A stretch of DNA of 64,000 bases from Patescibacteria group bacterium (GTDB taxonomy: Bacteria; Patescibacteriota; Patescibacteriia; Patescibacteriales; GWC2-42-12). The notes below the pieces were generated by a model. That model was not told the DNA's origin. It saw only the letters and a list, made by a program, of their open reading frames with translations, and searched no databases. Location: contig JBAZRI010000003.1 in assembly GCA_041662965.1 (NCBI GenBank), forward strand, positions 65,331-129,330, written 5' to 3'. The first letter of the stretch is position 1, and every line of letters starts with the position of its first letter. Of this stretch, positions 7,941-61,312 are shown piece by piece. The position numbers were made by a program, and so were the translations under genes.

Positions 7941-8030
7941 ATTTTATCTTTTTGATAACAAAAAAACGGCCAGTTTATACCTTTCCATCCTGCTTGTTAC
8001 TGCTTTGACGGAGCCGTTGAGTTTTTATTC

Positions 8031-8056
8031 TGTCATCCCCATATAACCGGGGACGT
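8031..8056. repeat. TGTCAT-headed mini-palindrome (TGTCATCCCC...GGGGACG)
   Basis: Shares the TGTCAT head with the other sub-families. A similar unit is at 45272. Confidence 0.6.
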
Positions 8057-8311
8057 AGAATGAGTTTTATTATGTATCAATTTTTAGCTTGTTGAAAACT
8101 TATTAAATACTAACAACAATCATTAGGCTTGTCAAGGGTTTTCGGTTTAAATTTTATAAAATTACGCAAGCCTATTTAATTTACTTTAATTTTAGCCATA
8201 ATACATAATTTTTTTATTATATCAACATACTGGAGGGCATAATTATCCACAGGTTAGACACGAAGGAAATAATTTTTCAAATTAGTGTTATAAAATATAA
8301 AATTGTTATTT

Positions 8312-9742
8312 TTATTTTTCCAACTCCTTCAATTCCTCCTTCACCACCTCCCTGTCATCCCAAGGAATTTTTACGCCTTCGGGCCCGCAAATAGCCTGCT
8401 CGCAGCCTTTGCCGGTAATTAAAACCATATCGCCTTCGCCGGCCAAAGACAAAGCTTTTTTAATAGCCGCGCGCCGATCTTCAATTTTAAATAAATTTTC
8501 ATTTTCTTTTTTGCCGGCGTTTTTCGCTCCGACCGCCACCTGATCAATAATTAATTTCGGATCGTCGTCGTAAGGATCTTCGTTGGTTACGATTACTATA
8601 TCGGCTTTTTCTCCGGCCAAGGCTCCGAGCTTCGGCCGCCTAGCAACGTCGCGCCCGCCCCCGGCAGAGCCTATTACATGGATTATTTTACTATGCTCTA
8701 ATTTTAAAATAGTGCCGTATATTTTTTTTAAAGCCTCAGGCTCAAAAGCATAATCAACTATAACCGTAAAGCTTCCCCCCTCTCCTTTAAAAGGAGAGGG
8801 GCGGGGTGAGGTTATCAGCTCCAGCCTGCCGGGAATGCCATCAATTTTTTCCAAACCGATTTTTATTTTTTCCAAATCCACCCCTTGGCTAAGCCCTAAA
8901 CAAACCGCGGCCATGGCGTTAGCCGCGTTATATTCGCCCAATTGCTTTAAATTTACTACTGCCTCATCTTTTACTTTAAAACTCACGCCATTTTGGCTTG
9001 ATTCAATATTGCCATATTTTACAATCTGCGTTTTATCATCCGCCGGCTTGGCTTTTAATTCGCCTTTGGCATATTGCCACTTTTCTTCAGCCCAAAAAGA
9101 CAAAAAGAAATCAGCATATTTGTCATCGCCGTTAGCGATAATGGTTTTTTTAACCCGGTTAGACTCTATTTTCTTAAAACCATTTTCAGTTTTAACCACT
9201 CGCTTTTTATCATCGGCATATTTTGTTTTGCCTTGTTTTAAATGAAAAAATAATTTGCCTTTAGCCTGCTTATAGTTGGCAAAACTGCCGTGGGCTTCAA
9301 TATGCTCGGGATAAAGGCCGGTAAAAATTAAGATGTCGTAATTTATAAATTTGTGGCGGAATTGTTCAATGCCTTGCGAAGTGGTTTCAACGATAGCGTA
9401 TTGGCAGTTATTTTTTACCATTTGTTTTAGCATTTTTTGGGTAAAAAACCTGCCGGCCATGGTCATTTTTTTGTTATTCAGCCATTCGCTTCGGCCGTCA
9501 TTAAAAATAGCCGTTGAGGTAAAGCCGGTTTTATAGCCGGCCGAAGCCAGCATTTTAGAGATTAAATAAACGCTGGTGGTTTTACCGGTTGTGCCGGTTA
9601 CGCCGATAACGATAAGTTTATTTGACGGCCAGCCGTACCAAGCAGAAGCAATCAGGCTTAATAAAAAATGATAGGCCGGTTGTAGGGCCTTAAATAACTT
9701 TGTGGGTATATATTGTTTAATTATGTGCAGTAATTGTTCCAT
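8312..9742 (-). CDS. Mur ligase family protein (MurE-like UDP-MurNAc-peptide ligase)
   Basis: 476 aa with the P-loop GVTGTTGKTT, central and C-terminal Mur-ligase blocks (VDYAFEP), and a FemAB neighbour. Which amino acid it adds cannot be told from sequence. Confidence 0.8.
   Translation of the reverse strand: MEQLLHIIKQYIPTKLFKALQPAYHFLLSLIASAWYGWPSNKLIVIGVTGTTGKTTSVYLISKMLASAGYKTGFTSTAIFNDGRSEWLNNKKMTMAGRFFTQKMLKQMVKNNCQYAIVETTSQGIEQFRHKFINYDILIFTGLYPEHIEAHGSFANYKQAKGKLFFHLKQGKTKYADDKKRVVKTENGFKKIESNRVKKTIIANGDDKYADFFLSFWAEEKWQYAKGELKAKPADDKTQIVKYGNIESSQNGVSFKVKDEAVVNLKQLGEYNAANAMAAVCLGLSQGVDLEKIKIGLEKIDGIPGRLELITSPRPSPFKGEGGSFTVIVDYAFEPEALKKIYGTILKLEHSKIIHVIGSAGGGRDVARRPKLGALAGEKADIVIVTNEDPYDDDPKLIIDQVAVGAKNAGKKENENLFKIEDRRAAIKKALSLAGEGDMVLITGKGCEQAICGPEGVKIPWDDREVVKEELKELEK
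8777..8811. repeat. GC-rich palindromic element inserted in frame inside the Mur ligase ORF
   Basis: CCCCTCTCCTTT-A-AAAGGAGAGGGG followed by CGGGGTGAGG. Translated on the minus strand as ...TSPRPSPFKGEGGS.... Near-identical element at 44541. Confidence 0.85.
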
Positions 9743-27309: not shown

Positions 27310-28575
27310 CTAAATACTCAGCGCCGCCTCCACTCTTGATTGTTGAGTATAAGCGAAATCCTCTGGTGAGTGCAGGGAGCGCAGCTTATCCAGCCGCGAA
27401 TCATTCCACATTTCAAGAAGATCATCCGTCATAATGTTGCCTAGCTTTAATAATTCCTCGGCTCGTTGCTTGGCGTCCAAATAACAATCCCCTTTGCTGG
27501 AAATGGCAAAATTATAAATTCCCAAACTCATGGCGCTAAGAGTTCCGGCCAGCGGGTGATACTCATTATTTCCCAAATGATGCAATTCTGATTTCCAAAA
27601 AGGATTTCTCATTTTAACTTTACCTGCGGCCGCCCAGCGCAGACATGTTTGCGCCATATATTTTAAATCCTCGTCGTCAAGCAAAAAATCTTGCATTGTT
27701 TCCTTGGCTCGGCCATATGGAGTAACTGCGTTAAGATAAATGGAGGATGCTCCGTATTCACCGGCAAGCTCAGCAATTTCATCTAGCTCGCCGATATTTT
27801 TTTTATGGACCGCTGCCGCAACGGTAAAAGCCAAGCCGGCATCATTGAGCAGGCGCAGACGGCGCAAAGTTTTTAAAAATGACCCTTTGCCTCGCAGAAA
27901 ATCATGAGTTTCCGCCGTTGCTCCATCTAAACTGGTTTGTATACTGATAAGATGCTTTAAAGATTTAAGACCGGAAGCTTGCTGCTCATCGAGATTGTCA
28001 TAGTCAGTCAACAGAGTTAAGCCAAATTGCATCTCATCGGCGATTTCAAGAATCCGTTGTGTATATGGAAGTGATAATGGCTCTCCGCCGGAGATAACCA
28101 ACATAAGAACGCCGGCTTCTCGCAATCGTTGTATTATTTTCACCCAATCGTCAAAGATCAGCTCTTTTTGTCTGTTGATGCGACTGTTTGCATTCGTGGC
28201 GCAATGACGGCAATATTTCGGGCAATAGTCGGTAATATAAATTGTAACGCTAGATGGCGCCGCTAAGCAATCGGTTCTAAAATTATTTTTACTTTCGTTG
28301 AAAATCAAAATACCTGAAGCCTCATTTCGTCGGTCTATCAATCCTTGTTCATCATAAAAAGTGATAAAATCCTGAATTTCTTGATCGCCGATCATCATTC
28401 CCTTAACAATTAAATTTTTACGCAATTCACTTATAGTCAAAGGGGTATTGAGAAGACGGAGAATCTCAAAAGCATCTTCATTAAATTGCCAATAACGCCC
28501 GCTAAAAGATTGAAAGGCCAAACAGCCAAACCATTCATGACGCAATATAATTCCTTCCTTCAGCGCGTATTTCAT
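27310..28575 (-). CDS. Radical SAM enzyme with an N-terminal peptide-binding-like (RRE/PqqD-like) extension and no SPASM cysteine pattern
   Basis: CX3CX2C motif (CPKYCRHC) about 115 aa into the protein. GGAGGTAAA-ATG start at 28575. The C-terminal third has only two Cys. Confidence 0.8.
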   Translation of the reverse strand: MKYALKEGIILRHEWFGCLAFQSFSGRYWQFNEDAFEILRLLNTPLTISELRKNLIVKGMMIGDQEIQDFITFYDEQGLIDRRNEASGILIFNESKNNFRTDCLAAPSSVTIYITDYCPKYCRHCATNANSRINRQKELIFDDWVKIIQRLREAGVLMLVISGGEPLSLPYTQRILEIADEMQFGLTLLTDYDNLDEQQASGLKSLKHLISIQTSLDGATAETHDFLRGKGSFLKTLRRLRLLNDAGLAFTVAAAVHKKNIGELDEIAELAGEYGASSIYLNAVTPYGRAKETMQDFLLDDEDLKYMAQTCLRWAAAGKVKMRNPFWKSELHHLGNNEYHPLAGTLSAMSLGIYNFAISSKGDCYLDAKQRAEELLKLGNIMTDDLLEMWNDSRLDKLRSLHSPEDFAYTQQSRVEAALSI

Positions 28576-28595
28576 TTTACCTCCAATGGATTGAT

Positions 28596-28630
28596 GGTGA
28601 GGATTTACGCTATAGCCGTAAATCCTCACC
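28596..28630 (-). promoter_or_regulatory. Intercistronic hairpin between the peptide gene and the radical SAM gene
   Basis: Perfect 14-bp stem GGTGAGGATTTACG / CGTAAATCCTCACC with a 7-nt loop and no U-tract. Confidence 0.7.
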
Positions 28631-30796: not shown

Positions 30797-31273
30797 TTAA
30801 AAATTTTTGATGAGCGCGATTTCCTTGCAGTCTACTGACCCCGGTACGGCGATATTGCGCGGACAGCGGATACAATCTGTCCACATTTTTTTAGGCAGCA
30901 TCTCCATGCCAACTTTTTTAAAACCGTGCTTTTCAAAAGTATTAGGGCGTAAAGTTAAAGTGTAAACTATTTTTATGCCCAGATCCTCTATCCTCTCCAT
31001 CACTGCCGAAATTAGCATAGAGCCTATGCCGTGATTAAAATATTTTTTATCCACAACCCAAGAAACTATTTCCGCTTTTTCATCTTCACCGATTTTAAAA
31101 GCCACGCTGCCGGCAAATTGGCCATCATAGTCAGCCGCCAAAAAATTCGGCAACATGACCGTTAGCTCGGCTCTGCTTTTTGGCAGAAGCAACTCTTCCT
31201 TAGCATAGAGCTTGATTAAATCGTGAATTTTTACTATATCACTAACTACCGCTTGTCTAATTATTATTTTCAT
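30797..31273 (-). CDS. GNAT acetyltransferase of the short ArgA-like (COG1246, N-acetylglutamate synthase-like) type
   Basis: 158 aa. The N-terminal IRQAVVSDIVKIHDLIKLYAKEELLLPKS pattern, the GNAT core, and the C-terminal KMWTDCIRCP...C motif are typical of this subfamily. AGGAG RBS. Confidence 0.65.
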   Translation of the reverse strand: MKIIIRQAVVSDIVKIHDLIKLYAKEELLLPKSRAELTVMLPNFLAADYDGQFAGSVAFKIGEDEKAEIVSWVVDKKYFNHGIGSMLISAVMERIEDLGIKIVYTLTLRPNTFEKHGFKKVGMEMLPKKMWTDCIRCPRNIAVPGSVDCKEIALIKNF

Positions 31274-31513: not shown

Positions 31514-31789
31514 AAAAAACCTCGTCTTCAAATAGAAAAAATTCTATTCAAGGACGAGGTTATTTAGTCTCGTGGTACCACCCTGATTCCCCAATTTTAT
31601 TATCGGAGCGCTCATTAAGCTATTTGCCCGCGGTAGCAAACCGCTCCGGCCTACTTAGGTTCAGCCGGCAATCTCCGGAAGCGCGTTCAGCATTACTGGC
31701 CTGCCGGGCTCGCACCATTACCCGGCTCGCTTAGAGGCTTAAATATTGCTTACTATTTTCCTTCAATGATTAGGTTGATTTTTAAGATC
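31514..31789 (-). promoter_or_regulatory. T-box riboswitch leader (specifier most likely CGC, Arg) with a terminator/antiterminator
   Basis: T-box sequence AATCAGGGTGGTACCACGAG (31569-31588). Stem I AG-bulge AGCGA and distal loop GGTGCGA. AGTA S-turn and GAA-CGC-G specifier loop. Terminator CCTCGTCC...GACGAGG plus T6 (31514-31559). Confidence 0.8.
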
Positions 31790-32379: not shown

Positions 32380-32925
32380 TTATAAAACTTTCGCGTATGA
32401 ATAGCAATCTTTCATTTTTCCGTCTTTCTCTTTTAGCGCTTTCCGCATCCGCCCTTCTTTCCGGTAGCCGTTTTTTATAGCCACTTTTTCGCTGGCAATA
32501 TTGGCCGGCTGCATTAATATTTCAATCCTCATAAGCTTTAGTTTCTTAAAGCAAACATCTTCCATTAATTTAACTGCTCTACTGGCAATGCCTTTACCCC
32601 AATATTTTTCATCTATAAAATAACCGATTTCTCCAACATATCTCCGGTGATAATTTATTTTCACGCCAATCGCGCCAACAACCTCTTCGCCATAAATAAT
32701 CGCGTAATTCCATTCGGTATTCTCTTTCTGCCGTTTCGTATTGCCTTTAAGCCAATTTTTCTCGGCTAAAACAGACTTCGGCCGGACGCTTGTCAGATAA
32801 ACAAAATTCTGGTTATTTAAAATCTCGTAAAATTTTTTGGCGTCGCTGATTTTTTGCGGCCTTAATTTTATTTTTGGCATAAAATTAAATATTAGTCTCT
32901 TATGCGCGAATTTTATCATATTCAC
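32380..32925 (-). CDS. GNAT acetyltransferase (RimJ/RimL-like)
   Basis: GNAT motif A (YWGKGIASRAV). The start is uncertain; an alternative ATG is at 32880. Confidence 0.7.
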   Translation of the reverse strand: MNMIKFAHKRLIFNFMPKIKLRPQKISDAKKFYEILNNQNFVYLTSVRPKSVLAEKNWLKGNTKRQKENTEWNYAIIYGEEVVGAIGVKINYHRRYVGEIGYFIDEKYWGKGIASRAVKLMEDVCFKKLKLMRIEILMQPANIASEKVAIKNGYRKEGRMRKALKEKDGKMKDCYSYAKVL

Positions 32926-34483: not shown

Positions 34484-36010
34484 TCACTTAAACACCTGCG
34501 CCGTGAACGTTAAAATTTGCGTGCTTTTATCCTTGTAGCAATCCGGCGCCAGCCCGGCTTTTTGCCAGCAGAGTTCTGATAAAAATTCTTCTAGGGTCCA
34601 ACCGGTGTCGGTGGCTACTTGGGGTAAAAACACTCCGCTTTGCGCGCCTCGCCTTATAATCACGCCGTGCCGGCCTAACTCTATTTTTTGCCAATCATCA
34701 ATCGGTTCCGGTGTTGATAAAACACTAACTTCATATTCTAACTTGCTTAATTCATCTTCGCTTACCGGGTTAAAACGCCCGTCTTCCGAACAGGCGGCCA
34801 CCGCCATGTCGCGCACTACCTGCCACAGCGGCTCGTCTGACGGCACAATTTGCCCGATACAGCCGCGCAGTCGCCCGTCTTTTTCTAGCGTCACGAACGC
34901 ACCCTGTTTTTGATTTAATCTCTCATCGGTAACATTAAATTCCGGAATCTTACTATTCTTCACATAGCTTTCCACTGTCTGTCTCGCTATATCTAGAAGC
35001 TTCTTCTTCTGCTCATCACTTAATTCGTTAATATTTTTAAATTTTTCATTGTCATTTTGCATTTTGCTATTTACATTTTCCATTTTAGCAAAAGCGACCG
35101 TCCCGTATCCGACCACCCTTGCTTTATCGCCGATTAACGGCGCGTCGCCGCTATTGGCATATTTTAAAATTTCAACTTTATCCCAGCCGGCTAATCGCGC
35201 TAACTCTATAGCGGTTTTAACCGCGTCAATGCCGCAAAGCGCGGTTTGCTCGTTAGCGTAGCCGGCGCTTTCCACGCCCTTGATATAACCGACGAATTCT
35301 TCGGCAGTAGCGGTTTTTATTTTTTCCAAAGTTTCTTTATCAATTTTATTAGCGTCTTCATACTCCGGGTAATGCGACATGTCAGTGGAAATTATTACTA
35401 TGTCATCCTGGCTTAAATTATCTTTTAAAGCCTCGGCTAATTTTTTATAACTATCTTCATCTTGGTTGCCGAATAAAATCGGCAAAATTTTAAAATCGCC
35501 CTCTAAAACCGTTTGTAAAAACGGAATTTCCACTTCTAAAACATGATCTTCTTTATGGATTGAGCCGTCATATTTTATGTCGCCGCCTGCCGCGATTAAT
35601 TTTTCCGCCAACTCTTTATCTACCGCTACGGTTCCGAGCGGCGTCTGCCAGCCGTCGCTATCATCAATGGCTATGCCGTCAAAATAGGCTTTATGGGAAT
35701 TACTGATAATCACGGCTGTGTTAATTTTTTTGCCCTCTAGTTGTTTAAAGGCATAAGCCGCCGCCGCTCCGCTATAATCATAGCCCGCGTGCGGCACTAT
35801 AATGGCTTTAACCCGGCCTTCTATTTTCTCCGCCAGCGCCTGTTTTAAATACCTCCGGATTTGATCGGTAATCGCGCCCGGCTCATTTGGATAAAATTGC
35901 CCGGCTACGGCCGCCGGTCTGATGGTTTTTAACATATCATTAGTCGCCTGTTTCTGACCGCAGGCGGTTAAAAGCATTAAAACTAAGAATAAAAATAATA
36001 ATTTCTTCAC
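34484..36010 (-). CDS. Fusion protein: Memo-like (AmmeMemoRadiSam protein B) plus AMMECR1 (protein A) domains, with a lipoprotein signal peptide
   Basis: Lipobox LLTAC. Memo block AGQFYP...VPHAGYDYSG. AMMECR1 block GAFVTLEKDGRLRGCIG. Confidence 0.75.
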   Translation of the reverse strand: MKKLLFLFLVLMLLTACGQKQATNDMLKTIRPAAVAGQFYPNEPGAITDQIRRYLKQALAEKIEGRVKAIIVPHAGYDYSGAAAAYAFKQLEGKKINTAVIISNSHKAYFDGIAIDDSDGWQTPLGTVAVDKELAEKLIAAGGDIKYDGSIHKEDHVLEVEIPFLQTVLEGDFKILPILFGNQDEDSYKKLAEALKDNLSQDDIVIISTDMSHYPEYEDANKIDKETLEKIKTATAEEFVGYIKGVESAGYANEQTALCGIDAVKTAIELARLAGWDKVEILKYANSGDAPLIGDKARVVGYGTVAFAKMENVNSKMQNDNEKFKNINELSDEQKKKLLDIARQTVESYVKNSKIPEFNVTDERLNQKQGAFVTLEKDGRLRGCIGQIVPSDEPLWQVVRDMAVAACSEDGRFNPVSEDELSKLEYEVSVLSTPEPIDDWQKIELGRHGVIIRRGAQSGVFLPQVATDTGWTLEEFLSELCWQKAGLAPDCYKDKSTQILTFTAQVFK

Positions 36011-37903: not shown

Positions 37904-38491
37904 CTATTTTCTCAAATTTATCTCGTAATTTATCTGCTCAATCTTCCTTAAATGCCCTTTGGCCTGATCATATTTGGTGCGCAGATAGCTCCTCATATCA
38001 AATTCAACCAATTCAGCCATAATGTCGTTGGCAATCTGATTAATTTTTTTCACTTCGTTAATATTACCCAGGGTAGCCATTTTTATGGCCTGGCGGACTA
38101 ACTCGCCGATTAAATCGCTGATCCCGCCGAGATAACTTTCATAGTCAACTTTTATGCCCTGAATTTTATCGACTTTTTTTCCAATCATTACTAAATAAAA
38201 CATTTTCGCTTCAACGTATTCTTCTAAAGCCGCCTTATAAGACCCTTCCTGCATTAAGCGGGAGGAATTGAATTTTTTTTCCAAATTTTTTAAAATCTCT
38301 TCAAGCTCCTTAAGTGTCTTTTCCGCGCCGGCTATATCGTCTCGATGCAGGGAAAATATTGCTTTTTTAGAATCATGCAAAACTATATTAGCTAAGCTAA
38401 TAATTTGCCGGCGCTCATTACCATGCGCGTCAAAATCTTTTTTTAACTGCTGGACGAATTTTTTATTGATCATAGATAGTGTAAAATGCAA
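37904..38491 (-). CDS. Translin-family-like protein (COG2178-like)
   Basis: All-helical 195 aa with YLGGISDLIGELVR, which resembles the translin signature. Confidence 0.45.
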   Translation of the reverse strand: MHFTLSMINKKFVQQLKKDFDAHGNERRQIISLANIVLHDSKKAIFSLHRDDIAGAEKTLKELEEILKNLEKKFNSSRLMQEGSYKAALEEYVEAKMFYLVMIGKKVDKIQGIKVDYESYLGGISDLIGELVRQAIKMATLGNINEVKKINQIANDIMAELVEFDMRSYLRTKYDQAKGHLRKIEQINYEINLRK

Positions 38492-52950: not shown

Positions 52951-53015
52951 TAAAATAATTTCTAGCATTCTCCGATAAAATTAACTATAAAAAATATTTT
53001 TTGCGAAAACTCTTG

Positions 53016-53041
53016 TTGACAATTTTTTTTCATGGTATAAT
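53016..53041 (+). promoter_or_regulatory. Promoter with TTGACA and extended -10 TGGTATAAT
   Basis: TTGACA at 53016-53021 and TGGTATAAT at 53033-53041. The spacer is short, so it probably functions through the extended -10. Confidence 0.55.
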
Positions 53042-53126
53042 AAAAATACAGTTAAAAAAATTTCACATAACCGGCAGAATTTTTTACAAAAAATCTTTTG
53101 CTAAAACGAGAGGGGGTGCAAAAAAT

Positions 53127-53204
53127 ATGGCAAAGAAAAAAGCTAAGAAGAAAGCGACCAAGAAAGTTGCTAAGAAGAAAGCGACCAAGAAAAAGAAAAA
53201 ATAG
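53127..53204 (+). CDS. Polybasic micro-protein (25 aa): MAKKKAKKKATKKVAKKKATKKKKK
   Basis: RBS GAGAGGGGGTG about 8 nt upstream of the ATG. Has its own promoter and terminator and an internal direct DNA repeat (24-nt unit, 27-nt period). Confidence 0.5.
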   Translation: MAKKKAKKKATKKVAKKKATKKKKK

Positions 53205-53232
53205 TTTATAAAGTTTTGCTTTATAAATAAAA

Positions 53233-53266
53233 AATAGAAGCGGTTTGAATCGTTTCTATTTTTTAT
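53233..53266. terminator. Hairpin terminator shared by the micro-ORF and the convergent PHP gene
   Basis: AATAGAAGCG-loop-CGTTTCTATT followed by T6. Confidence 0.6.
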
Positions 53267-53277
53267 TCGGATAAATT

Positions 53278-54576
53278 TTAAAATAAACTTCTTTGTTTGT
53301 TTTTTTCTTTTTCTTGTTCGCTGAAAATTTTAATTTCTCCGTATTGCCCGTCAAAGCCAGGCTTGATGATTAAATTGCCTTGGCGCGCCCGCTTTACGGC
53401 CTCGGCTATTGCCGGATCGGTTATAGCCGTTAAATCTTTTAGGCTAATATTTAATAAAATATTAAGCTCGTTAGCTCCTGATTTTATTAAATTATTATAC
53501 GCTGACCGCACTCTTTTTGAATACCTTGATTTAACGTCTAAAGCTTCGGCGATTATTTTATCAAGCTCAACTAATTTAATAAACGGCGCAGCCGATAAAG
53601 GTTTAAAGCCTAAAGGTCGGTCAGCCAGTTCGTCAACTCGGTTCATCACGCCGATAGTTAAAGATTTTTTGCAAACCGGACAAATATTTTTATGTTTTTT
53701 AGTTTGTTCCGGAGTAAAGCTTACGCCGCAGGCGCGATGGCCGTCATAATGGTACATGCCTTCTTCCGGATAAAATTCTATAGTGTATTTAATGCCGGCG
53801 GCGCCATTCTGAGAAATTTTTTTATTTTTAATAATATCATAAATTTCATCATAGTTGATAATTTTCATCTCAAACACATTGGCTTCGCGCGCGATATTCG
53901 GTAAAGAATGAGCGTCGGAATTGGAAAGCACGGTTAATTTATCCAAAGCCGATAAGCGCCAATTCATCTCCGGGTCGCTTGAAAGTCCGGTTTCTATGGC
54001 GTAAATATTTTCCGTATACTCGTGAAAGCATTCTTCCATTTTATCAAAGCCTGATTTTGAACCGAAAACCGCGAACCACGGCGTCCAAATATGCGCCGGA
54101 TAAATTAAAAATCTTTTATCAATCCCTAGGCACAATTTCATTAAAGTCGGGGCGCTCATGCCTAATATCGGCCGTCCGTCCGAGCGAATATTATATTTTT
54201 TATCTAAAAAATTATTTAATTCCTCAACCGCTTTTATGTTGGGCGCGTGGATTACTAAGTGAATGCGCCTGGCTTTGCCCCCGTCTTTATAAATTAAGGC
54301 TACTTCGGTTGATAAAATAAATTTTACCCTATCGTCTTTAGCGCTTTTTAGTTTATATAGCCCGGCTCCTCCTCCTGGCAAGGGGGAGCTAGAGGGGGTT
54401 ATTTCTTCCAATTTATTTTTTATATCGGAAAACCAAAGAGGATAAGTAAAATCACCGGTAGCGATTATATCAACGCCCTTAATTCGGCAGGCGGCGTCAA
54501 TATTTTCCAATGTCAGCTCCGGCGAGCAGGAGCGGGAATATTTAGAATGGATATGTAAATCTAAAATTTGCTGCAT
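53278..54576 (-). CDS. PHP-domain protein, endonuclease Q-like
   Basis: N-terminal LDLHIHSKYSRSCS PHP motif and an internal CPVC zinc-ribbon-like motif. 432 aa. Confidence 0.6.
   Translation of the reverse strand: MQQILDLHIHSKYSRSCSPELTLENIDAACRIKGVDIIATGDFTYPLWFSDIKNKLEEITPSSSPLPGGGAGLYKLKSAKDDRVKFILSTEVALIYKDGGKARRIHLVIHAPNIKAVEELNNFLDKKYNIRSDGRPILGMSAPTLMKLCLGIDKRFLIYPAHIWTPWFAVFGSKSGFDKMEECFHEYTENIYAIETGLSSDPEMNWRLSALDKLTVLSNSDAHSLPNIAREANVFEMKIINYDEIYDIIKNKKISQNGAAGIKYTIEFYPEEGMYHYDGHRACGVSFTPEQTKKHKNICPVCKKSLTIGVMNRVDELADRPLGFKPLSAAPFIKLVELDKIIAEALDVKSRYSKRVRSAYNNLIKSGANELNILLNISLKDLTAITDPAIAEAVKRARQGNLIIKPGFDGQYGEIKIFSEQEKEKNKQRSLF
54365..54398. repeat. GC-rich hairpin plus G-run inserted in frame in the PHP/EndoQ-like ORF
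   Basis: GCTCCTCCT-loop-AGGGGGAGC followed by TAGAGGGGG. Translated as ...PSSSPLPGGGAGLY.... Confidence 0.6.
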
Positions 54577-54597
54577 AAAATATATTATAATATACCT

Positions 54598-54692
54598 AAA
54601 AATTCCGCAAATAATAGTAAATTTTCGTGCGAGGACTGTTTGAGGACGCCATTAGGCGGACGAGTTCCGCAGTAGAAAATTTGCTGTTATTT
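54598..54692. repeat. Conserved-core / locus-specific-stem hairpin, family B copy 3
   Basis: Outer stem AAAATTCCGCAAATAA.. / its complement. Conserved arms TTTTCGTGCGAGGACTGTTTGAG and CGAGTTCCGCAGTAGAAAAT. Central CGCC-ATTA-GGCG. Confidence 0.8.
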
Positions 54693-54734
54693 GCGGAATT
54701 TTATCTGTTTAATAATTTAAGAAGCTAGGCTATT

Positions 54735-55241
54735 TTACCCAAAATATTTTAAATGCTTGCCAATCGGCAGGCCTCTTTGCTTCTCGCCGACATCAACGTC
54801 CAGCCATTTATCATTAATTTTTACCTGCAAATATTGATGTAATATAAAATTAACAAACACATGCCGGCGCCTTATATCCTCTTCTTTAAACCAGCCGCTA
54901 CTAACCAAAAAAATTTTCAATAAATAATTATTTACCGTACACGGTAAATAACCGCCCATCCGCCAGGCCTCGTCTAAAGATTTAAACAAATAATTGAATT
55001 TTAAAAAAGTATTAAAGCGCTCGGAGCGATATCTTGAGCCAAGATAATCATAAGCTAATCGTAAAAATTCTTCGTCCGTACGCGACTGCGCTTTATACTC
55101 TTCAATTTTTACTCGCATTTCAGCCGGCATCTGCTCGGGAATTTTTTCTTCAGAAAAACCCAAATGCGGAATAACTAAACGAGATAAAACAAAAACTAAT
55201 AAAATATAAATTGCGATAATATAGACAATATAATAGATCAT
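54735..55241 (-). CDS. Membrane-anchored protein with a possible transglutaminase-like Cys-His-Asp core
   Basis: N-terminal TM segment, then an ordered C (GYLPCT), H (ILHQY) and D (WLDVD). Confidence 0.35.
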   Translation of the reverse strand: MIYYIVYIIAIYILLVFVLSRLVIPHLGFSEEKIPEQMPAEMRVKIEEYKAQSRTDEEFLRLAYDYLGSRYRSERFNTFLKFNYLFKSLDEAWRMGGYLPCTVNNYLLKIFLVSSGWFKEEDIRRRHVFVNFILHQYLQVKINDKWLDVDVGEKQRGLPIGKHLKYFG

Positions 55242-55244
55242 ATA

Positions 55245-55997
55245 TTAAATATTTTTTCTTCTGTCCGCTTCGGCTAACTGCTCCGGCGTATTTATACCAA
55301 ACCATTGATCGGGATTTTTTAATTTTACCGCGGCCAGTTTAGACCGGCTGGCTAAAGCCTCTTCTATGAAACTGGGCAACCCGTATTCTCCTAGGCCGCT
55401 GATCGGCTTTAAATTTAAATAATGCTTTTTAAACCAAGCCCTTTTAAAGCAAAAAGTGTTAGTGTTAATTTCTCTAACTTCCTCTAATTCCGGCGTCATA
55501 TTTTCTTTTTCCACGATTTTCATCACCTGGCCGTTCTCCCCGCGGACAACGCGCCCCAGCCCCTTAGGGTCAGGCGGCTCGCAAGTCAAAATGCTGATAT
55601 CATTATTATTTTCTAGATGCAATTCAATTAATTCAAAAAGCGAATTGAATTTATAAAAAGCCGAATCATCGCCGTTTATTACCAAAAAATTAGTAAAATT
55701 TGCCGGCAACGCGCTTTCACCTATCAGCGCGGCATGAGCCGTGCCTAAACGCTCAGTTTGCGCGGCATAAATATAACCTTGGCCGATGGTTTCTTTAACT
55801 AATTCGGCCTTAAAACCGACTACTAAAAAAATTTGGCTTTTATCCAGCCCTCCCTTTTCTAATTCTTCTAAAATATAACTGATAATCGGCCGCTCGTTTA
55901 TTTTATAAAGCACCTTGGGCAAATCAACGCAACCCAGCCTTTTACCCTGGCCGGCCGCTAAAATCACTATAGCGAAATTTTTTAATTTCTGCTCCAT
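55245..55997 (-). CDS. Sugar-1-phosphate nucleotidyltransferase, GlmU N-terminal-domain-like (no LbH acetyltransferase domain)
   Basis: LAAGQGKRLG signature. 250 aa. Last gene of the glmS-glmM cluster. Confidence 0.75.
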   Translation of the reverse strand: MEQKLKNFAIVILAAGQGKRLGCVDLPKVLYKINERPIISYILEELEKGGLDKSQIFLVVGFKAELVKETIGQGYIYAAQTERLGTAHAALIGESALPANFTNFLVINGDDSAFYKFNSLFELIELHLENNNDISILTCEPPDPKGLGRVVRGENGQVMKIVEKENMTPELEEVREINTNTFCFKRAWFKKHYLNLKPISGLGEYGLPSFIEEALASRSKLAAVKLKNPDQWFGINTPEQLAEADRRKNI

Positions 55998-55998
55998 A

Positions 55999-57363
55999 TT
56001 AATTTAATTTATTTTCAATAACCTCTCCTATTTTTTCAGCCAAATTTTTAATTTCTTTTTCATCTTTTCCCTCAACCATTATCCGGCATAAAAGCTCGGT
56101 GCCGCTATAGCGCACTAATACCCTGCCTTCTGCGCCTAAATATTTTTCCGTGTCTTTTATCGCCTTGTTAATTTCCGGCACGGTAGAAAAATCCGGTTTA
56201 GTTTTTACTTTGACATTAATTAATATTTTAGGCGCCAAATAAACTTCTTTGGCTAATTCCGACAGCGGTTTATTAAAATATTTCATTGCCGAAAGCAGCA
56301 TCAAACCGCTTAATATGCCGTCGCCGGTCGTATGATAATCTAAAAAAATAATATGCCCGGATTCTTCGCCTCCTAAAACTGCTTTTTCATTTACTAACGC
56401 CCTATAAACTTGCCTATCACCTACGTCAGTTTGGAAATGCCTAATTCCCAAATTTCTTAAACCATTAATGAAACCGATATTACTCATCGATGTACTAGCA
56501 ACCAGATTATTTTTTAAAATATCTTTTTTCTTTAGCATTTTAGCGCAGATATAAAGCAAGTGGTCTCCGGTTAAACGCTCTCCTTTTTCATCAATAGCGA
56601 TTAATCTGTCGCCGTCCCCGTCAAAAGCCAAGCCGATATCGGCTCGCTTTTTAAGAACCGCTTTTTGCAAATCTTCGGCGTGCTCGGATCCGCAAGCTTT
56701 GTTTATATTTTTCCCGTTCGGAGAATTAAAAATCACCGCTGCTTCCGCGTCCAATTTCTTAAAAATATAGGGAGCAACTTTAAATGTTGCTCCGTTAGCG
56801 CAGTCTAAAACAATCTTTAAGCCTTTTAAATTGCCGCCATTTAAAATATTTATCAAAAATTCGGCGTATTTTTTATTATAATCATTAAGTGATCTCGCGT
56901 TAGAATCAGCTATAATTTCTAGGGCGGCCGGGTAAGCTCTCCTCCCGGCGCGGGCCTTCCCTCCGGCTATTAATTTTTCTATCTGCTCTTCTTCAAGGTC
57001 CGTTAATTTCGCGCCGTCGTTTTTAAAAATTTTAAAGCCGTTATGGTTGTAAGGATTATGCGAAGCTGAAATCACTAATCCTAAACCGGCGCTTTCCTTT
57101 TTTGCTAAATAAGCTATGGCCGGAGTCGGGATTATTCCGGCTGAAATTATTTTACCGCCAGACTCTACTATGCCCCGTGAAACCGCCAATTCCAATAAAG
57201 GGCCGGACGCCCTGGTGTCTCGGCCGATAATTATTACCGGCGTGATTTTGTTTTTTCGGCAATACTGCATTAAAGCCTTGCCCAGTTTAAATGCCAGCAC
57301 TTCATTCATGGTTTCGCTTCCCGCCACGCCCCTGATGCCGTCGGTGCCGAATAATTTTTTCAT
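55999..57363 (-). CDS. glmM: Phosphoglucosamine mutase
   Basis: 454 aa with the active-site loop SASHNP and the alpha-D-phosphohexomutase pattern. Confidence 0.9.
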   Translation of the reverse strand: MKKLFGTDGIRGVAGSETMNEVLAFKLGKALMQYCRKNKITPVIIIGRDTRASGPLLELAVSRGIVESGGKIISAGIIPTPAIAYLAKKESAGLGLVISASHNPYNHNGFKIFKNDGAKLTDLEEEQIEKLIAGGKARAGRRAYPAALEIIADSNARSLNDYNKKYAEFLINILNGGNLKGLKIVLDCANGATFKVAPYIFKKLDAEAAVIFNSPNGKNINKACGSEHAEDLQKAVLKKRADIGLAFDGDGDRLIAIDEKGERLTGDHLLYICAKMLKKKDILKNNLVASTSMSNIGFINGLRNLGIRHFQTDVGDRQVYRALVNEKAVLGGEESGHIIFLDYHTTGDGILSGLMLLSAMKYFNKPLSELAKEVYLAPKILINVKVKTKPDFSTVPEINKAIKDTEKYLGAEGRVLVRYSGTELLCRIMVEGKDEKEIKNLAEKIGEVIENKLN

Positions 57364-57384
57364 AAAATAAAAAATATTTTACCA

Positions 57385-57993
57385 TTATTTAACTACAACC
57401 AGCCAATTAGCCGCCAAATCCGAATTTTCTTCGTCAGCCTTAAAGCCAAGCGCTAAACTAAATTTTACTGATGCGTTGTTTTTATTATCCATTCCAGCCC
57501 AAAACCTAAGGCCGGAAAATTTTTTCTCATAAATATCCATCGCGAATAAGGTGAAATTTTTCATCAGCCCCTTACCCCGAAAACTTGGATAAGAACGCCA
57601 AACGGCCGTATGCCAATAAGTTTGCTCTTTATCTTTTTCCTCGATTCCAAACTTTATTGATTTTTTACCCAGTGATTTTGGTCCAAACCAAACTAATGCG
57701 GCTAAGGCATCAGTTCGTTTGTGAATAAGCATAAATGGCGTGCGATCTTTCCTATACCAATCTTCATAAGAGCCTTCGCCAAAACGCCTTCTGTCGCCAG
57801 TATTATTTTGCAGATCAACGTCGGTTTTATCCAGAGATAATCGTTGAAGTTGCTCGGTATATTTTTTATCAAGCCCGATAAAAATACTAAATTCTTCGCC
57901 GTCTTTAGTTATGGCGTCGGCAATATGAACCGAACTGTAAATCGGCAGAGGCAGCGAAAAATTTTCTAAATTTTTTTTAGAAATAATTTTCAT
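57385..57993 (-). CDS. GNAT-like protein embedded between glmS and glmM
   Basis: 202 aa with the motif-A-like FRGKGLM and overall beta-alpha GNAT-like spacing. Weak call. Confidence 0.35.
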   Translation of the reverse strand: MKIISKKNLENFSLPLPIYSSVHIADAITKDGEEFSIFIGLDKKYTEQLQRLSLDKTDVDLQNNTGDRRRFGEGSYEDWYRKDRTPFMLIHKRTDALAALVWFGPKSLGKKSIKFGIEEKDKEQTYWHTAVWRSYPSFRGKGLMKNFTLFAMDIYEKKFSGLRFWAGMDNKNNASVKFSLALGFKADEENSDLAANWLVVVK

Positions 57994-57997
57994 ATAT

Positions 57998-59836
57998 TTA
58001 TTCCACGGTTACCGACTTTGCTAAATTCCTCGGCTTATCAACGTCCCGGCCGTTTAACACCGCCATATGATAAGCGAATAATTGCAAAGGAATGGTGGCC
58101 AAGATCGGCGTCAACATTTCCAAAGTTTTCGGTATATAAATTACTTGGTCCGCCACTTCTTTTATTTTAGTATCGCCTTCCGTGGCGATGGCGATAATTT
58201 TCCCGCGGCGCGCTTTTATTTCCTGCATGTTGGAATAATTCTTTTCATAAACGCTGTCGGCCGGCGCGATGACTAAAGAAGGAAAATTTTCGTCCAGTAA
58301 AGCGATAGAGCCATGCTTCATTTCGCCGGAAACAAAGCCTTCGGCATGAATATAGGAAATTTCTTTTAATTTAAGCGCGCCTTCAAAGGCCACCGGGTGA
58401 TTATATTTCCTGCCCAGATAAGCAAAATGCTTAGATTGATAAAACTCTTGGGCAATTTTCTTTATCTCTTTTTCAGTGGATAAAACCTGCTTTATTTTAT
58501 CCGGCAGCTTAATCAATTCCTGAAGGATTCTCTGCCCCATGACTAAAGACATTTGCCTTTGCCGGCCCATCATTACAGCCATTAAAGCCAGAATCGCGAC
58601 TTGCGAGGTAAAAGCCTTGGTTGAAGCCACGGAAGTTTCCGGCCCGATATGATTATAAATTCCGGCGTCGGTCTCGCGGGCGATAGTTGAGCCAACGACG
58701 TTAACAATGCCTAAAACCAGCGCGCCTTTTTCTTTAGCTTCCCTCAGCGCGGCCAAAGTGTCGGCGGTTTCACCCGATTGGCTTAAAGCGATAACTAAAG
58801 TTTTATTGTCTAAAACCGGCTTGCGATAGCGAAACTCGGACGCATAATCAACTTCCGTTGATATGCCGGCGTATTCTTCAAACATATATTCGCCGACCAA
58901 ACCGGCATGGCGCGCCGTGCCGCAGGCAACGATTACAATTTTTTCTATTCCTCTTATTTTATCAACCACTTGATCCAAACCGCCTAATTTAGCCTTGCCT
59001 TCGTCTAAAATAATCCGGCCGCGCAGGCTATTGGCGATTGAAGCCGGCTGTTCAAATATCTCTTTAAGCATAAAATGCGGAAAGCCGCCTTTTTCGCTTT
59101 CTTCTAAGTTCCAATCAATCTCTGTGGTTTCCTTGGCCACAGTTTCATTTTTTAAATTATAAATTTTAAGGCCGTCGCCGTTTATTTCGGCTATTTCATT
59201 ATCATCCAAATATATAACTTGCTTAGTGTAGCGGATTATGGCCGAAACGTCGGAAGCAATGATAGTTTCATTGTCGGCCAAGCCTAAAACCAAAGGCGAA
59301 CCGCATCTGGCCGCCAATAATTTGTCCGGTTCGTCAACGTGATAAAGCGCCAAGCCGTATGTGCCTTTTAAAATTTTTAAAGCCTTGATTAAAGTAGTTG
59401 TTAAGTTGCCGTCATATAAATCTTCTAAAAGATGCGCGATCACTTCCGTGTCGGTTTGCGAAACGAATTTATGCCCTTTGGCGATTAACCGGGTTTTTAA
59501 TTCCTGATAATTTTCTATAATGCCGTTATGCACCAGCCAAATTTTTTTCTGGCAATCGCAATGCGGATGCGCGTTTTCTTCCGACGGCGCGCCATGAGTG
59601 GCCCAGCGCGTATGAGCGATGCCTAAGCCCGACCCCTTAACCGAAGACAAATCCATAAGATTTAATTTCTTCTCTAGCTCCGCGATTTTACCCACAGCCT
59701 TAGACGTAAAAACGCCAGCCGCGGTTTTTATTGATATGCCCGAGCTGTCATAGCCCCGATATTCAAGCCGCTTTAAGCCATCAAGCAAAATCGGCAAAAC
59801 ATTATTTTTTCCAATATAACCGACGATTCCACACAT
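57998..59836 (-). CDS. glmS: Glutamine--fructose-6-phosphate aminotransferase
   Basis: 612 aa with the MCGIVGY Ntn start, two SIS domains, and the C-terminal ...KSVTVE. Confidence 0.96.
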   Translation of the reverse strand: MCGIVGYIGKNNVLPILLDGLKRLEYRGYDSSGISIKTAAGVFTSKAVGKIAELEKKLNLMDLSSVKGSGLGIAHTRWATHGAPSEENAHPHCDCQKKIWLVHNGIIENYQELKTRLIAKGHKFVSQTDTEVIAHLLEDLYDGNLTTTLIKALKILKGTYGLALYHVDEPDKLLAARCGSPLVLGLADNETIIASDVSAIIRYTKQVIYLDDNEIAEINGDGLKIYNLKNETVAKETTEIDWNLEESEKGGFPHFMLKEIFEQPASIANSLRGRIILDEGKAKLGGLDQVVDKIRGIEKIVIVACGTARHAGLVGEYMFEEYAGISTEVDYASEFRYRKPVLDNKTLVIALSQSGETADTLAALREAKEKGALVLGIVNVVGSTIARETDAGIYNHIGPETSVASTKAFTSQVAILALMAVMMGRQRQMSLVMGQRILQELIKLPDKIKQVLSTEKEIKKIAQEFYQSKHFAYLGRKYNHPVAFEGALKLKEISYIHAEGFVSGEMKHGSIALLDENFPSLVIAPADSVYEKNYSNMQEIKARRGKIIAIATEGDTKIKEVADQVIYIPKTLEMLTPILATIPLQLFAYHMAVLNGRDVDKPRNLAKSVTVE

Positions 59837-59844
59837 ATATTTCT

Positions 59845-59880
59845 TGTCATTGCGAGGAGCCTCAGCGACGAAGCAATCTC
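59845..59880. repeat. TGTCAT-headed repeat, single half-unit, directly upstream of glmS
   Basis: TGTCATTGCGAGGAGCCTCAGCGACGAAGCAATCTC. Confidence 0.8.
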
Positions 59881-59895
59881 ACGAACGACATATTA

Positions 59896-60642
59896 TTATA
59901 TAAATTTCCACAGTTGCAAAAATATTGTTTTCTGCGTCTGATAGATCATTTCATTCTCTATAATCACCCCCACCGGATTATTGCGGCTGTCGCGGGAGAT
60001 AAAAGCGCATTTATCCGCGTAAATTAAAATATAAGTCATATTATCTTCACTCTCCCGATCGGTTTTAAGCCATTTTCTTTCGTCTAGGCCGTAAGTGCCG
60101 CCGCCGGAAGATAAAGAAATAGTATTAACTTTTATCTTGCTCTTAATTCTCTTTTTATTAAAATCCGGATAAGCGCCATAAACGTCTTCGCGCACCCCGG
60201 CCGCGGAATAAACATAATATTCTTTAACTTCAAGCTCTTTAGCCGAATTTAAAATATCATCTAAAATAAACTTTATGCCTGCTTTGCCTTCATAAAATTT
60301 AGTCACCGGCTTATTGCCGCCCTTTTCCTGAAGCGATTTCAGCTCGGGAATTAATTCTTTGATTTTTTCCCCGGCGTTTTTAAGCTCGTCCGCGCGGTCA
60401 GCCAGTAATTTTAAAATTTTTTCCGGATCTTCAGCCACGAAATGTTGCCTGGTGTTTTTATGGAAAAAGCTCACCAGCCCGGCTTCCTGCAGTTTTTTTA
60501 AAATGTCGTAAGTCGTGCCGCGATTTAAATTAGTTAAGGAAGCTAAATTTCTAACCGAGCCGGCGCCATGCTCTAAGAGCGATAAATAAACAGCGGTTTC
60601 TTTATCGCCTAAGCCTAATTTTTTTAAAATGGCTATGTCCAT
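59896..60642 (-). CDS. TrmB-family transcriptional regulator
   Basis: N-terminal wHTH (LGLGDKETAVYLSLLEHGAGSVRNLASLTNLNRGTTYDILKKLQEAGLV). Confidence 0.8.
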   Translation of the reverse strand: MDIAILKKLGLGDKETAVYLSLLEHGAGSVRNLASLTNLNRGTTYDILKKLQEAGLVSFFHKNTRQHFVAEDPEKILKLLADRADELKNAGEKIKELIPELKSLQEKGGNKPVTKFYEGKAGIKFILDDILNSAKELEVKEYYVYSAAGVREDVYGAYPDFNKKRIKSKIKVNTISLSSGGGTYGLDERKWLKTDRESEDNMTYILIYADKCAFISRDSRNNPVGVIIENEMIYQTQKTIFLQLWKFI

Positions 60643-60673
60643 ATTATTTTCTCCTCTTCTCGCGAAGGAGAGG

Positions 60674-60880
60674 CTAAGTAAGACTAATATTTTTAATAAT
60701 TTGTTGGCCGGTTTGGCAATTAAATTTTATTCCATCATGCCCTTCAGCTTTAGCTTTATTTATTAACTGCCTTAATTTATTTAGATCTTCTTTTTGGCAA
60801 AATTTCTGGCAATTAACGCAATTTATATTTTTAAGCTTCTTGCCGCTAGATTTCTTCTTAAACATAATAAATTTTCTCAT
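60674..60880 (-). CDS. Small basic Cys-containing protein, unknown function
   Basis: 68-aa ORF with CVNCQKFC...C. No RBS recognised. Confidence 0.35.
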   Translation of the reverse strand: MRKFIMFKKKSSGKKLKNINCVNCQKFCQKEDLNKLRQLINKAKAEGHDGIKFNCQTGQQIIKNISLT

Positions 60881-61050
60881 CGTAAATTGTTATTTAATCA
60901 GCATAACTCAATAATTTATTATTGTCAATAATTTTTCTACAATAATATAATATAATAAAATAAATAGCTTAAATTAGCTATTTATTTATAATATACTTGT
61001 CAACTAATATAACTACAATTATAAAGTTATCCACAGTAAAAGGCATTATA

Positions 61051-61176
61051 GTTTTATTAAAATTTTTGGCCGTAGAGCTTTGCTCGCTAAAAATTTTAAT
61101 AAAACACATTATATTTTTGGAAAATATTATTTATCCCCGTAGGGGGAAAACCTTTTTTGAAAAGGTTTTTAAAAAC
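61051..61176 (-). promoter_or_regulatory. Hairpin plus TATAAT cassette (copy 3 of 3), downstream of the 5S rRNA
   Basis: Stem 61051-61067 / 61089-61105 and loop GGCCGTAGAGCTTTGCTCGCT. The distal block carries an extra CCCCGTAGGGG palindrome. Confidence 0.55.
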
Positions 61177-61194
61177 AATTAAAAAAGCACCATG

Positions 61195-61312
61195 GTTCCG
61201 GCGCTGGCCTACTCTCCCAGGGCTTATGCCCAAGTACCATCGGCGCTGATGAGCTTGACTTCCGTGTTCGGGATGGGAACGGGTATGGCCTCATCGCTAG
61301 AAGCACCAGAAC
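61195..61312 (-). rRNA. rrf: 5S ribosomal RNA
   Basis: The minus strand reads GTTCTGGTGC...CCCGTTCCCATCCCGAACACGGAAGTCAAGC...GGGAGAGTAGG...GCGCCGGAAC. Helix I closes with 10 bp including G-U pairs. Confidence 0.9.

Follow-up and report, generated by a model that had tools for sequence, protein, structure and literature searches.

As its essential entry metabolite, peptidoglycan requires UDP-N-acetylglucosamine (UDP-GlcNAc), and GlmU has been regarded as present in all bacteria and as a target for antibiotics. In ordinary bacteria, glucosamine 1-phosphate (GlcN-1-P) is acetylated by the C-terminal domain of GlmU, whereas in eukaryotes GNA1, an enzyme of the GNAT type, acetylates glucosamine 6-phosphate (GlcN-6-P) before the mutase step. 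A preprint on NagU of S. aureus describes species that possess a truncated N-terminal GlmU only and for which 'an unidentified acetyltransferase' was inferred (bioRxiv 10.64898/2026.06.23.733835), and a GlmU without C-terminus, for which no explanation was given, has been noted in Chlorobaculum limnaeum (PMC7725333). On UDP-GlcNAc acetylation in bacteria of the candidate phyla radiation (CPR), including Patescibacteria, Parcubacteria and Saccharibacteria, nothing was found in the literature. Here, we analyzed a stretch of 64,000 nt from contig JBAZRI010000003.1 of a Patescibacteria group bacterium (the whole stretch is referred to as the window, and all genomic negatives on the source organism cover these 64 kb), in which a UDP-GlcNAc gene cluster combines the N-terminal half of GlmU with a gene for a 202-aa GNAT-like protein, here termed GNATx.

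The sequence-only reading of the window had proposed that this GNAT-like gene is a non-orthologous replacement of the GlmU acetyltransferase domain, a proposal that is strongly supported by the comparative data. We estimate the probability at about 0.8 that GNATx acts as the acetyl-CoA-dependent glucosamine-phosphate N-acetyltransferase of the pathway and, thereby, replaces the left-handed beta-helix (LbH) domain of GlmU. This predicted role is based on the gap in the encoded pathway, the GNAT fold of the protein, the linkage of its gene family to glmS and to acetyl-CoA-producing genes, its alternation with other acetyltransferases in the same slot of the cluster, and fusion proteins in which a domain of this family follows a nucleotidyltransferase.

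A UDP-GlcNAc gene cluster with the N-terminal half of GlmU

The cluster consists of tightly spaced genes on the minus strand in the order glmS (57998..59836), GNATx (57385..57993), glmM (55999..57363) and glmU-N (55245..55997), with intergenic distances of 4, 21 and 1 nt. At 3 nt past glmU-N, orf168 forms the fifth and last gene. All four open reading frames (ORFs) that the sequence-only reading had listed were recovered at their coordinates. The product of glmS is a glutamine--fructose-6-phosphate transaminase of 612 aa, which matches TIGR01135 with 803 bits (cutoff 418) and NF001484 with 818 bits, begins with MCGIVGY, thus having the N-terminal Cys of class-II amidotransferases, and contains GATase_6/7 and two SIS domains according to Pfam. 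GlmM, a phosphoglucosamine mutase of 454 aa, belongs to the alpha-D-phosphohexomutase superfamily and was identified by TIGR01455 (497.8 bits, cutoff 447.55), by four PGM_PMM domains in Pfam and by the catalytic motifs SASHNP, DGDGDR, GEESGH and RYSGTE in its translation. GNATx aside, the operon encodes every step of UDP-GlcNAc synthesis except the acetylation. In addition, Pfam scans of the window revealed genes for a Mur ligase and for a member of the FemAB family, indicating that the source cell makes peptidoglycan and needs UDP-GlcNAc.

The 250-aa product of glmU-N is a stand-alone uridylyltransferase domain. It covers only positions 1-234 of GlmU models that comprise 447-452 positions (161-171 bits) and aligns with residues 2-236 of S. 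pneumoniae GlmU (4aaw; E 1.6e-35), and in this alignment the motifs G-x-G-x-R, PK, Q..LGTAHA, GDD, E-K-E, INT and GINT are kept. Model match and alignment agree with the earlier statement that only the N-terminal half of GlmU is present. The best 120 homologues all have a length of 182-270 aa (about 250) and no Hexapep domain, and the ORF of glmU-N closes with its own stop codon 3 nt before the next ORF, which has no similarity to LbH proteins; a truncated pseudogene was ruled out by these observations. The LbH half, which had also been reported missing, was detected neither in glmU-N nor in the cluster or the 64-kb window, as a query with the E. coli GlmU C-domain gave no match in any frame of the window and no Hexapep domain was found in the Pfam scans of 37 window ORFs. 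As a positive control, the C-domain query detected the LbH in 49 of 49 full-length GlmU genes from a metagenomic sample.

Family, fold and genomic setting of GNATx

GNATx is 100% identical to NCBI WCV70_03525, which identifies the source as a metagenome-assembled genome of the Patescibacteria (CPR). It remained below threshold in Pfam, with 20.5 bits to PF13302 (gathering 25.4; C-terminal 59 residues only) and 17.6 bits to PF00583, and had no match in NCBIfam; as a family, it is covered by neither of the two databases, and the precomputed PF13302 matches of some homologues place it at the edge of that clan. Among 5.8 billion proteins, 185 relatives were found, and a GNATx profile yielded 480 matches at E<=1e-3 among 1.84 billion cluster representatives. 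Among the 120 relatives listed, the source names that are given refer without exception to CPR lineages or to unclassified bacteria, and the majority of these proteins are annotated as hypothetical. Judged by these sequence searches, GNATx is a small, unnamed family restricted to the CPR.

The AlphaFold2 model of GNATx (pLDDT 94.2, pTM 0.90) displays the order of secondary-structure elements of a GNAT, beta1-alpha1-alpha2-beta2-4-alpha3-beta5-alpha4-beta6. In Foldseek, the model retrieved 237 PDB matches at E<=1e-3, many of them with a probability of 1.00, and all among those listed are GNATs. The modelled fold is unambiguously that of a GNAT, which confirms the initial description of the 202-aa protein as GNAT-like. 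Across 44 homologues, 19 residues are invariant, and the family has an N-terminal motif, NTGDxxRF...WY...R. The acetyl-CoA loop reads R139-G140-K-G142-L-M144, with R139 and G140 being invariant and G142 and M144 being conserved in at least 90% of the homologues; the GNAT motif A (R/Q-x-x-G-x-G/A, beta4-alpha3) is present with Met instead of Gly/Ala at its final position. The acceptor region in alpha1-alpha2 contains an invariant polar and charged cluster (D58, T65, D67, R70, Y80, R84 and R133). In GNATs in general, such a cluster on the acceptor side fits a small anionic substrate.

The comparison with GNA1, which the sequence-only reading had invoked, came out negative for sequence and structure. 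No GNA1 occurred among the top 50 Foldseek matches of GNATx or among the 37 PDB profile matches at E<=10, and the profile search against PDB sequences gave weak C-terminal GNAT matches only. The signature residues of GNA1 (Glu98-Asp99...Val102...Gly112...Tyr143...Gly147 in yeast numbering; PMC4559419) are absent from GNATx, in which beta4 reads W127-H128-T129...R133-S-Y135 and no conserved Tyr is located four residues before the glycine of LGF. On the strength of these comparisons, GNATx is not a GNA1 orthologue.

To characterize the genomic setting of the family, loci from 75 species-level genomes were sampled with flanks of up to 10 kb, and statistics were based on the 71 loci with a called ORF. 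glmS was located within 6 kb of GNATx in 27 of these 71 loci and immediately upstream in 13, and glmM was found nearby in 4; glmU-N was matched in 4 of 78 GNATx loci, a count that includes the window's own copies. A pair of ATP-citrate-lyase-like genes follows GNATx in 33/71 loci. Kbl, a glycine C-acetyltransferase whose 512 bits exceed the cutoff, is encoded in 19/71 together with an SDR-type or Zn-type threonine dehydrogenase (Tdh), Pta (phosphotransacetylase) is encoded in 5/71, and the UDP-GlcNAc-binding protein YvcK/GlmR in 15/71. An acetyl-CoA-producing module is present in 54 of the 71 loci, and glmS or such a module in 62. Time and again, GNATx thus lies between the gene whose product makes the amino sugar phosphate and genes that supply the acetyl donor, and this setting suggests that amino-sugar acetylation is among the main purposes for which these cells use acetyl-CoA. 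Neither an LbH nor a mini-GNAT, the shorter GNAT described below, was found in the 78 GNATx loci (about 0.8 Mb).

The ATP-citrate-lyase-like pair is composed of a Citrate_bind plus ATP-grasp protein and a CoA-ligase plus citrate-synthase C-domain protein. It is located directly after the GNAT in L024, L028, L030-L077 (e.g., L050, 6600-9566) and L080 (12248-15920) and is common in reduced CPR genomes; in other loci, its place is filled by Tdh and Kbl or by Pta. One locus of the sample (L075, CAZPQJ010000001.1) is labelled 'uncultured Gammaproteobacteria' but displays the typical CPR order TrmB...glmS-YvcK-GNATx-ACL, and the label is probably a taxonomic misassignment.

Close relatives of the cluster were retrieved around the short GlmU-N, and in these sister operons the slot after glmS and the position of the mutase gene are occupied by different proteins. 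In the window, these places are held by GNATx and GlmM. In L082 (glmS 93% and GlmU-N 85% identical to the window), GNATx (73%) is combined with YvcK and a HAD protein, while L081 (glmS 93%, TrmB 88%, GlmU-N 83%) and L083 (glmS 74%, GlmU-N 82%) also have YvcK and HAD genes, together with a mini-GNAT of 110 aa and 108 aa, respectively. A mini-GNAT along with GlmM is found in L078 (glmS 70%, GlmU-N 71%) and L084 (glmS 74%, GlmU-N 79%), and GlmM of L078 is 69% identical to that of the window. Thus, among close relatives, GNATx and the mini-GNAT are each found both with GlmM and with YvcK plus HAD, so that each of the four possible pairings of acetyltransferase and mutase type is represented. In a further cluster, L101, the order is murB-murA-GlmU-N (243 aa)-separate 209-aa LbH gene-TrmB-glmS with YvcK downstream and no GNAT in the cluster; GlmU is split here (8007-9310), and the 243-aa uridylyltransferase gene overlaps the start of the LbH gene. 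With GNATx, the mini-GNAT and the LbH of L101, three different acetyltransferases hold equivalent places in one conserved cluster.

The genes in the glmM position of L081 (5002-6651), L082 (2070-3712) and L083 (5284-6908) encode YvcK/GlmR of the CofD family and a HAD protein of 211-220 aa. YvcK/GlmR has been reported as an accessory uridylyltransferase in Listeria (PMC10128056). The HAD protein had generic HAD matches only; it may be an alternative phosphosugar mutase.

The mini-GNAT family comprises at least 268 members of 95-136 aa. GNATx was rejected as a long form of this family, as BLASTP found nothing and hhalign aligned the acetyl-CoA motif alone with a probability of 8%. The best solved relatives of the mini-GNAT are an uncharacterised Agrobacterium protein and Tb11.01.2886 of T. 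brucei (profile E 7e-12), followed by GNA1 of yeast (1.2e-8) and then of Arabidopsis, human, Aspergillus and C. elegans, so that six GNA1 orthologues were matched in all. When the AlphaFold2 model (pLDDT 90.9) was searched with Foldseek, T. brucei GNA1 (3fb3/3i3g) occupied ranks 1-3 with 29% identity. Tb11.01.2886 has been aligned to yeast GNA1 and human GNPNAT1 with ten conserved residues marked (PMC4559419), and six of these ten (Glu98, Asp99, Val102, Gly112, Tyr143 and Gly147) correspond to E44, D45, V48, G58, Y92 and G96 of the mini-GNAT with the same spacing. Two members of the 108-aa mini-GNAT family (P0300 and P0320), with 61-65% identity, carry the label Candidatus Nanoarchaeia (DPANN archaea), which hints at sharing between two ultra-small radiations or at mis-binning.

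Finally, fusion proteins were identified that resemble GlmU in their architecture. In P0426, P0427 and P0430 (422-431 aa), which represent three clusters with at most 50% identity, a nucleotidyltransferase with TIGR03992 as best model (positions 1-230 only, 177-204 bits) is followed by a domain of the GNATx family, which takes the place where the LbH normally sits. P0427 (NCBI MDD3302859.1; L164, 2245-3528) originates from a Gracilibacteria metagenome-assembled genome and reads through 26 UGA codons (genetic code 25). Its C-terminal domain is 30% identical to GNATx of the window over 152 aa (E 1e-15) and keeps the family motifs. By its domain composition, this Gracilibacteria fusion would be an analogue of GlmU in which a GNAT replaces the LbH. 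In six more representatives (P0385, P0392, P0403, P0435, P0441 and P0478), GNATx is fused to a HAD-family domain of the same kind as the HAD protein of L081-L083.

Acceptor, order of steps and alternative roles

In the pathway that we favor, GlmS would produce GlcN-6-P from fructose-6-P and glutamine, and GNATx would move the acetyl group of acetyl-CoA onto the 2-amino group of GlcN-6-P. GlmM would then shift the phosphate from C6 to C1, and the stand-alone GlmU N-domain would uridylylate GlcNAc-1-P to UDP-GlcNAc for peptidoglycan. Our confidence in the acceptor, and with it in this eukaryote-like order, is far lower than in the role of GNATx. Provided that GNATx is the acetyltransferase of the pathway, we consider GlcN-6-P slightly better than an even bet, GlcN-1-P a real but lesser contender and UDP-glucosamine (UDP-GlcN) a minor one. 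We lean towards GlcN-6-P because the mini-GNAT, which can fill the slot instead, resembles GNA1 and because linkage to glmS is far more frequent than that to glmM or glmU-N. In addition, acetyltransferase and mutase types assort independently, suggesting that orthologous GlmMs receive one and the same intermediate from either GNAT, which also argues for GlcN-6-P.

The same role could also be exerted in the order of ordinary bacteria, with GlmM making GlcN-1-P, GNATx acetylating it and GlmU-N carrying out the uridylylation. We regard this order as rather unlikely overall, yet several observations weigh for it and against an acetylation of GlcN-6-P. The score of GlmM of the window exceeds the trusted cutoff of the equivalog model for bacterial glmM, and in E. 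coli GlcNAc-6-P needs to be deacetylated by NagA before it enters the GlmM/GlmU route, so that GlcNAc-6-P would be expected to suit a canonical GlmM poorly. By analogy to GlmU, which the nucleotidyltransferase-GNATx fusions copy, the fused activities, acetylation and uridylylation, would be consecutive; moreover, GNATx lacks the signature residues of GNA1. This is countered by the GNA1-like nature of the mini-GNAT, with which GNATx alternates in the slot, and by the skewed linkage to glmS (27/71) compared to glmM (4/71) or glmU-N. The HAD-GNATx fusions favor neither order. Consecutive steps in the nucleotidyltransferase fusions would also be compatible with a third order, in which GlmU-N makes UDP-GlcN from GlcN-1-P and GNATx converts this to UDP-GlcNAc. 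GNATs that act on nucleotide-linked amino sugars exist, and one of them, PseH, holds rank 21 in the Foldseek list of GNATx. However, the active-site motifs of GlmU-N are those of the GlcNAc-1-P-specific GlmU, GlcN-1-P is a poor uridylyltransferase substrate of E. coli GlmU, and a sugar phosphate is suggested both by the glmS link and by the interchange with an enzyme resembling GNA1, which makes UDP-GlcN a very improbable acceptor.

Some evidence bears on the role of GNATx as such. The gene identities, the fold, the lack of an LbH in the operon and the window, the genomic comparisons and the fusions are direct observations, whereas for the whole family we infer which reaction is catalyzed, on which acceptor and in which order of steps. 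Further points that weigh against the proposed role are that GNATx has no specific similarity to GNA1, that its best structural matches are of the Pat, RimJ/RimL, NatD and PA3944 types (TM about 0.5-0.6, 10-17% identity), that the LbH negative for the source genome spans 64 kb only, so that an unlinked LbH may lie elsewhere, and that in a metagenome sample centered on glmU-N the partner in 5 of 6 loci with glmS was the mini-GNAT and not GNATx, which indicates that GNATx is the rarer solution in this clade. The structural matches could mean that GNATx is an acetyltransferase of protein lysines or N-termini, or a regulator of, e.g., GlmS or the ATP-citrate-lyase-like proteins, and that the sugar acetyltransferase is encoded elsewhere. 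The top Foldseek matches are the lysine acetyltransferases Pat/PatZ/Rv0998 and RimJ/RimL/NatD, some sources name homologues RimJ/RimL-like, and GNATx frequently adjoins CoA-ligase-type enzymes. We nevertheless give such a function little chance: the matches are weak and generic, the acceptor-side residues of GNATx are invariant and polar, the window already contains a canonical RimL-like GNAT, and neither the alternation with a GNA1-like protein and a split LbH nor a fusion in the place of the LbH is expected for a regulator. A slimmer chance still is left to an LbH acetyltransferase or a full-length GlmU elsewhere in the genome, with GNATx being redundant or serving salvage, e.g., of free glucosamine, which is acetylated by GlmA in Clostridium. 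The 64 kb available from the source genome and the split LbH gene of L101 would be compatible with this; on the other hand, no LbH occurs in the window or in the about 0.8 Mb around 78 GNATx loci, the best 120 GlmU-N homologues are all without it, and L101, which keeps its LbH, has it inside the cluster and has no GNAT. Taken together, a glucosamine-phosphate N-acetyltransferase remains our preferred assignment for GNATx.

Two other GNATs of the window were considered as sugar acetyltransferases and rejected, as both are unlinked to the operon and the products resemble an amino-acid N-acetyltransferase (30797-31273) and RimL (32380-32925), respectively. The former gene, on the minus strand, encodes 158 aa with 127 bits to NF005840 (below the cutoff of 154) and a match to PDB 5yge (E 3e-9). 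A T-box leader (RF00230, 115 bits, 31547-31775, minus strand) is located about 270 nt upstream of it, which is unusual before an acetyltransferase.

Neighboring genes and comparison with known systems

The cluster is preceded at a distance of 59 nt by a gene for a TrmB-family helix-turn-helix regulator (59896..60642, minus strand; PF01978 TrmB, 48.9 bits), with 5S and 23S rRNA genes farther out. TrmB adjoins the cluster also in L003, L078-L081, L083, L084, L088-L092 and L113 (44-88% identity) and is the probable sugar-responsive regulator of the cluster. On the other side, orf168 (54735..55241, minus strand) encodes a conserved membrane-anchored protein of 168 aa with an N-terminal transmembrane helix. 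It is kept directly after glmU-N in L078, L079 and L081 (54-73% identity) and had no family match in Pfam, NCBIfam or PDB; by eye, a Cys...His...Asp pattern was seen, and the possibility of a transglutaminase-like protein is unsupported. The next gene (53278..54576, minus strand) encodes a PHP-like/MJ0043_C protein of the TIGR00375 family (172.8 bits, below cutoff). It follows the cluster also in L003, L078, L079, L081-L084 and L088-L089, with PF27218 matched in relatives, and its membership in the pathway is uncertain. A promoter and terminator scan of positions 53000-61200 found sites no more numerous than in shuffled sequences and is silent on the operon boundaries. The GC content at third codon positions is lower in GNATx (0.345) than in glmS (0.476), glmU-N (0.434) and glmM (0.400), and between the window and L082 GNATx is less conserved than glmS (73% versus 93% identity); in terms of sequence, this would fit either a separate acquisition or a more rapid evolution of GNATx. 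The window further encodes a Translin-family protein (37904-38491, minus strand; PF01997, 72 bits), a Memo-AMMECR1 fusion protein (34484-36010, minus strand) and, about 6 kb off the latter, a radical-SAM/SPASM protein (27310-28629, minus strand).

The reaction and the GNAT fold are already known. New are the GNATx family, the proposed use of its members for this step in bacteria and the recurring displacement. GNATx and the mini-GNAT are two concrete, cloneable candidates for the acetyltransferase postulated in bacteria with partial GlmU, near-identical operons with interchanged GNATs represent a natural experiment, and the fusion proteins mimic GlmU. If the assignment is true, it would fill in a missing pathway step in genome-scale models for a huge radiation of uncultivated bacteria, provide a case in which an essential enzyme domain has repeatedly undergone non-orthologous displacement, show whether the eukaryote-like order of steps exists in bacteria and explain the persistence of acetyl-CoA-producing genes in reduced genomes. 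As a tentative extension, which we would not yet bet on, the hexosamine pathway may be rewired throughout the Patescibacteria: the GlmU acetyltransferase domain would have been lost, GlcN-6-P would be acetylated by a GNA1-like mini-GNAT or the unrelated GNATx and fed by neighboring acetyl-CoA modules, GlmM would sometimes be replaced by YvcK/GlmR plus HAD, and the Gracilibacteria fusion would represent a GlmU analogue.

Compared to the pathway with the bifunctional GlmU of E. coli or S. pneumoniae, the end product is the same, glmS and glmM of the window are canonical, and glmU-N is a homologue of the uridylyltransferase domain with the catalytic motifs kept. The difference lies in the acetylation, for which GlmU has an LbH domain acting on GlcN-1-P and the window a separate protein with the GNAT fold, i.e., of another fold and superfamily. 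With GNA1/GNPNAT1 (EC 2.3.1.4), GNATx would have in common the fold, the donor acetyl-CoA and the proposed amino-sugar-phosphate acceptor; however, it is about 40 residues longer, has an extra N-terminal beta-hairpin and a variable insert at 106-126 and is without the Glu-Asp...Tyr signature. It is the mini-GNAT of the sister operons, and not GNATx, that resembles GNA1 structures. The GNATx gene is positioned directly after glmS, which is a further point in common with the GNA1 pathway. Most likely, GNATx has been recruited independently of GNA1. GNATs of the Acetyltransf_3 (RimJ/RimL-like) and Pat types share the C-terminal N-x-x-S...LGF motif with GNATx, which differs by its own invariant N-terminal motif and by a context of hexosamine and acetyl-CoA metabolism rather than ribosomal proteins. 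The fusion proteins share with the archaeal Arch_glmU (TIGR03992), which we take to comprise the ST0452 and MJ1101 types, the nucleotidyltransferase domain followed by an acetyltransferase domain, but the latter is an LbH in the archaeal proteins and a GNATx-family domain in the fusions, and the window has separate genes with a nucleotidyltransferase of the bacterial GlmU type. An uridylyltransferase of the NagU type (eukaryotic UAP-like) is not involved in the pathway of the window. Finally, the bacteria with partial GlmU in the NagU preprint and in PMC7725333 have the same kind of gap as the window; those papers offer no candidate enzyme and do not include the CPR, whereas the gap in the window is filled by candidates that are encoded in the operon itself.

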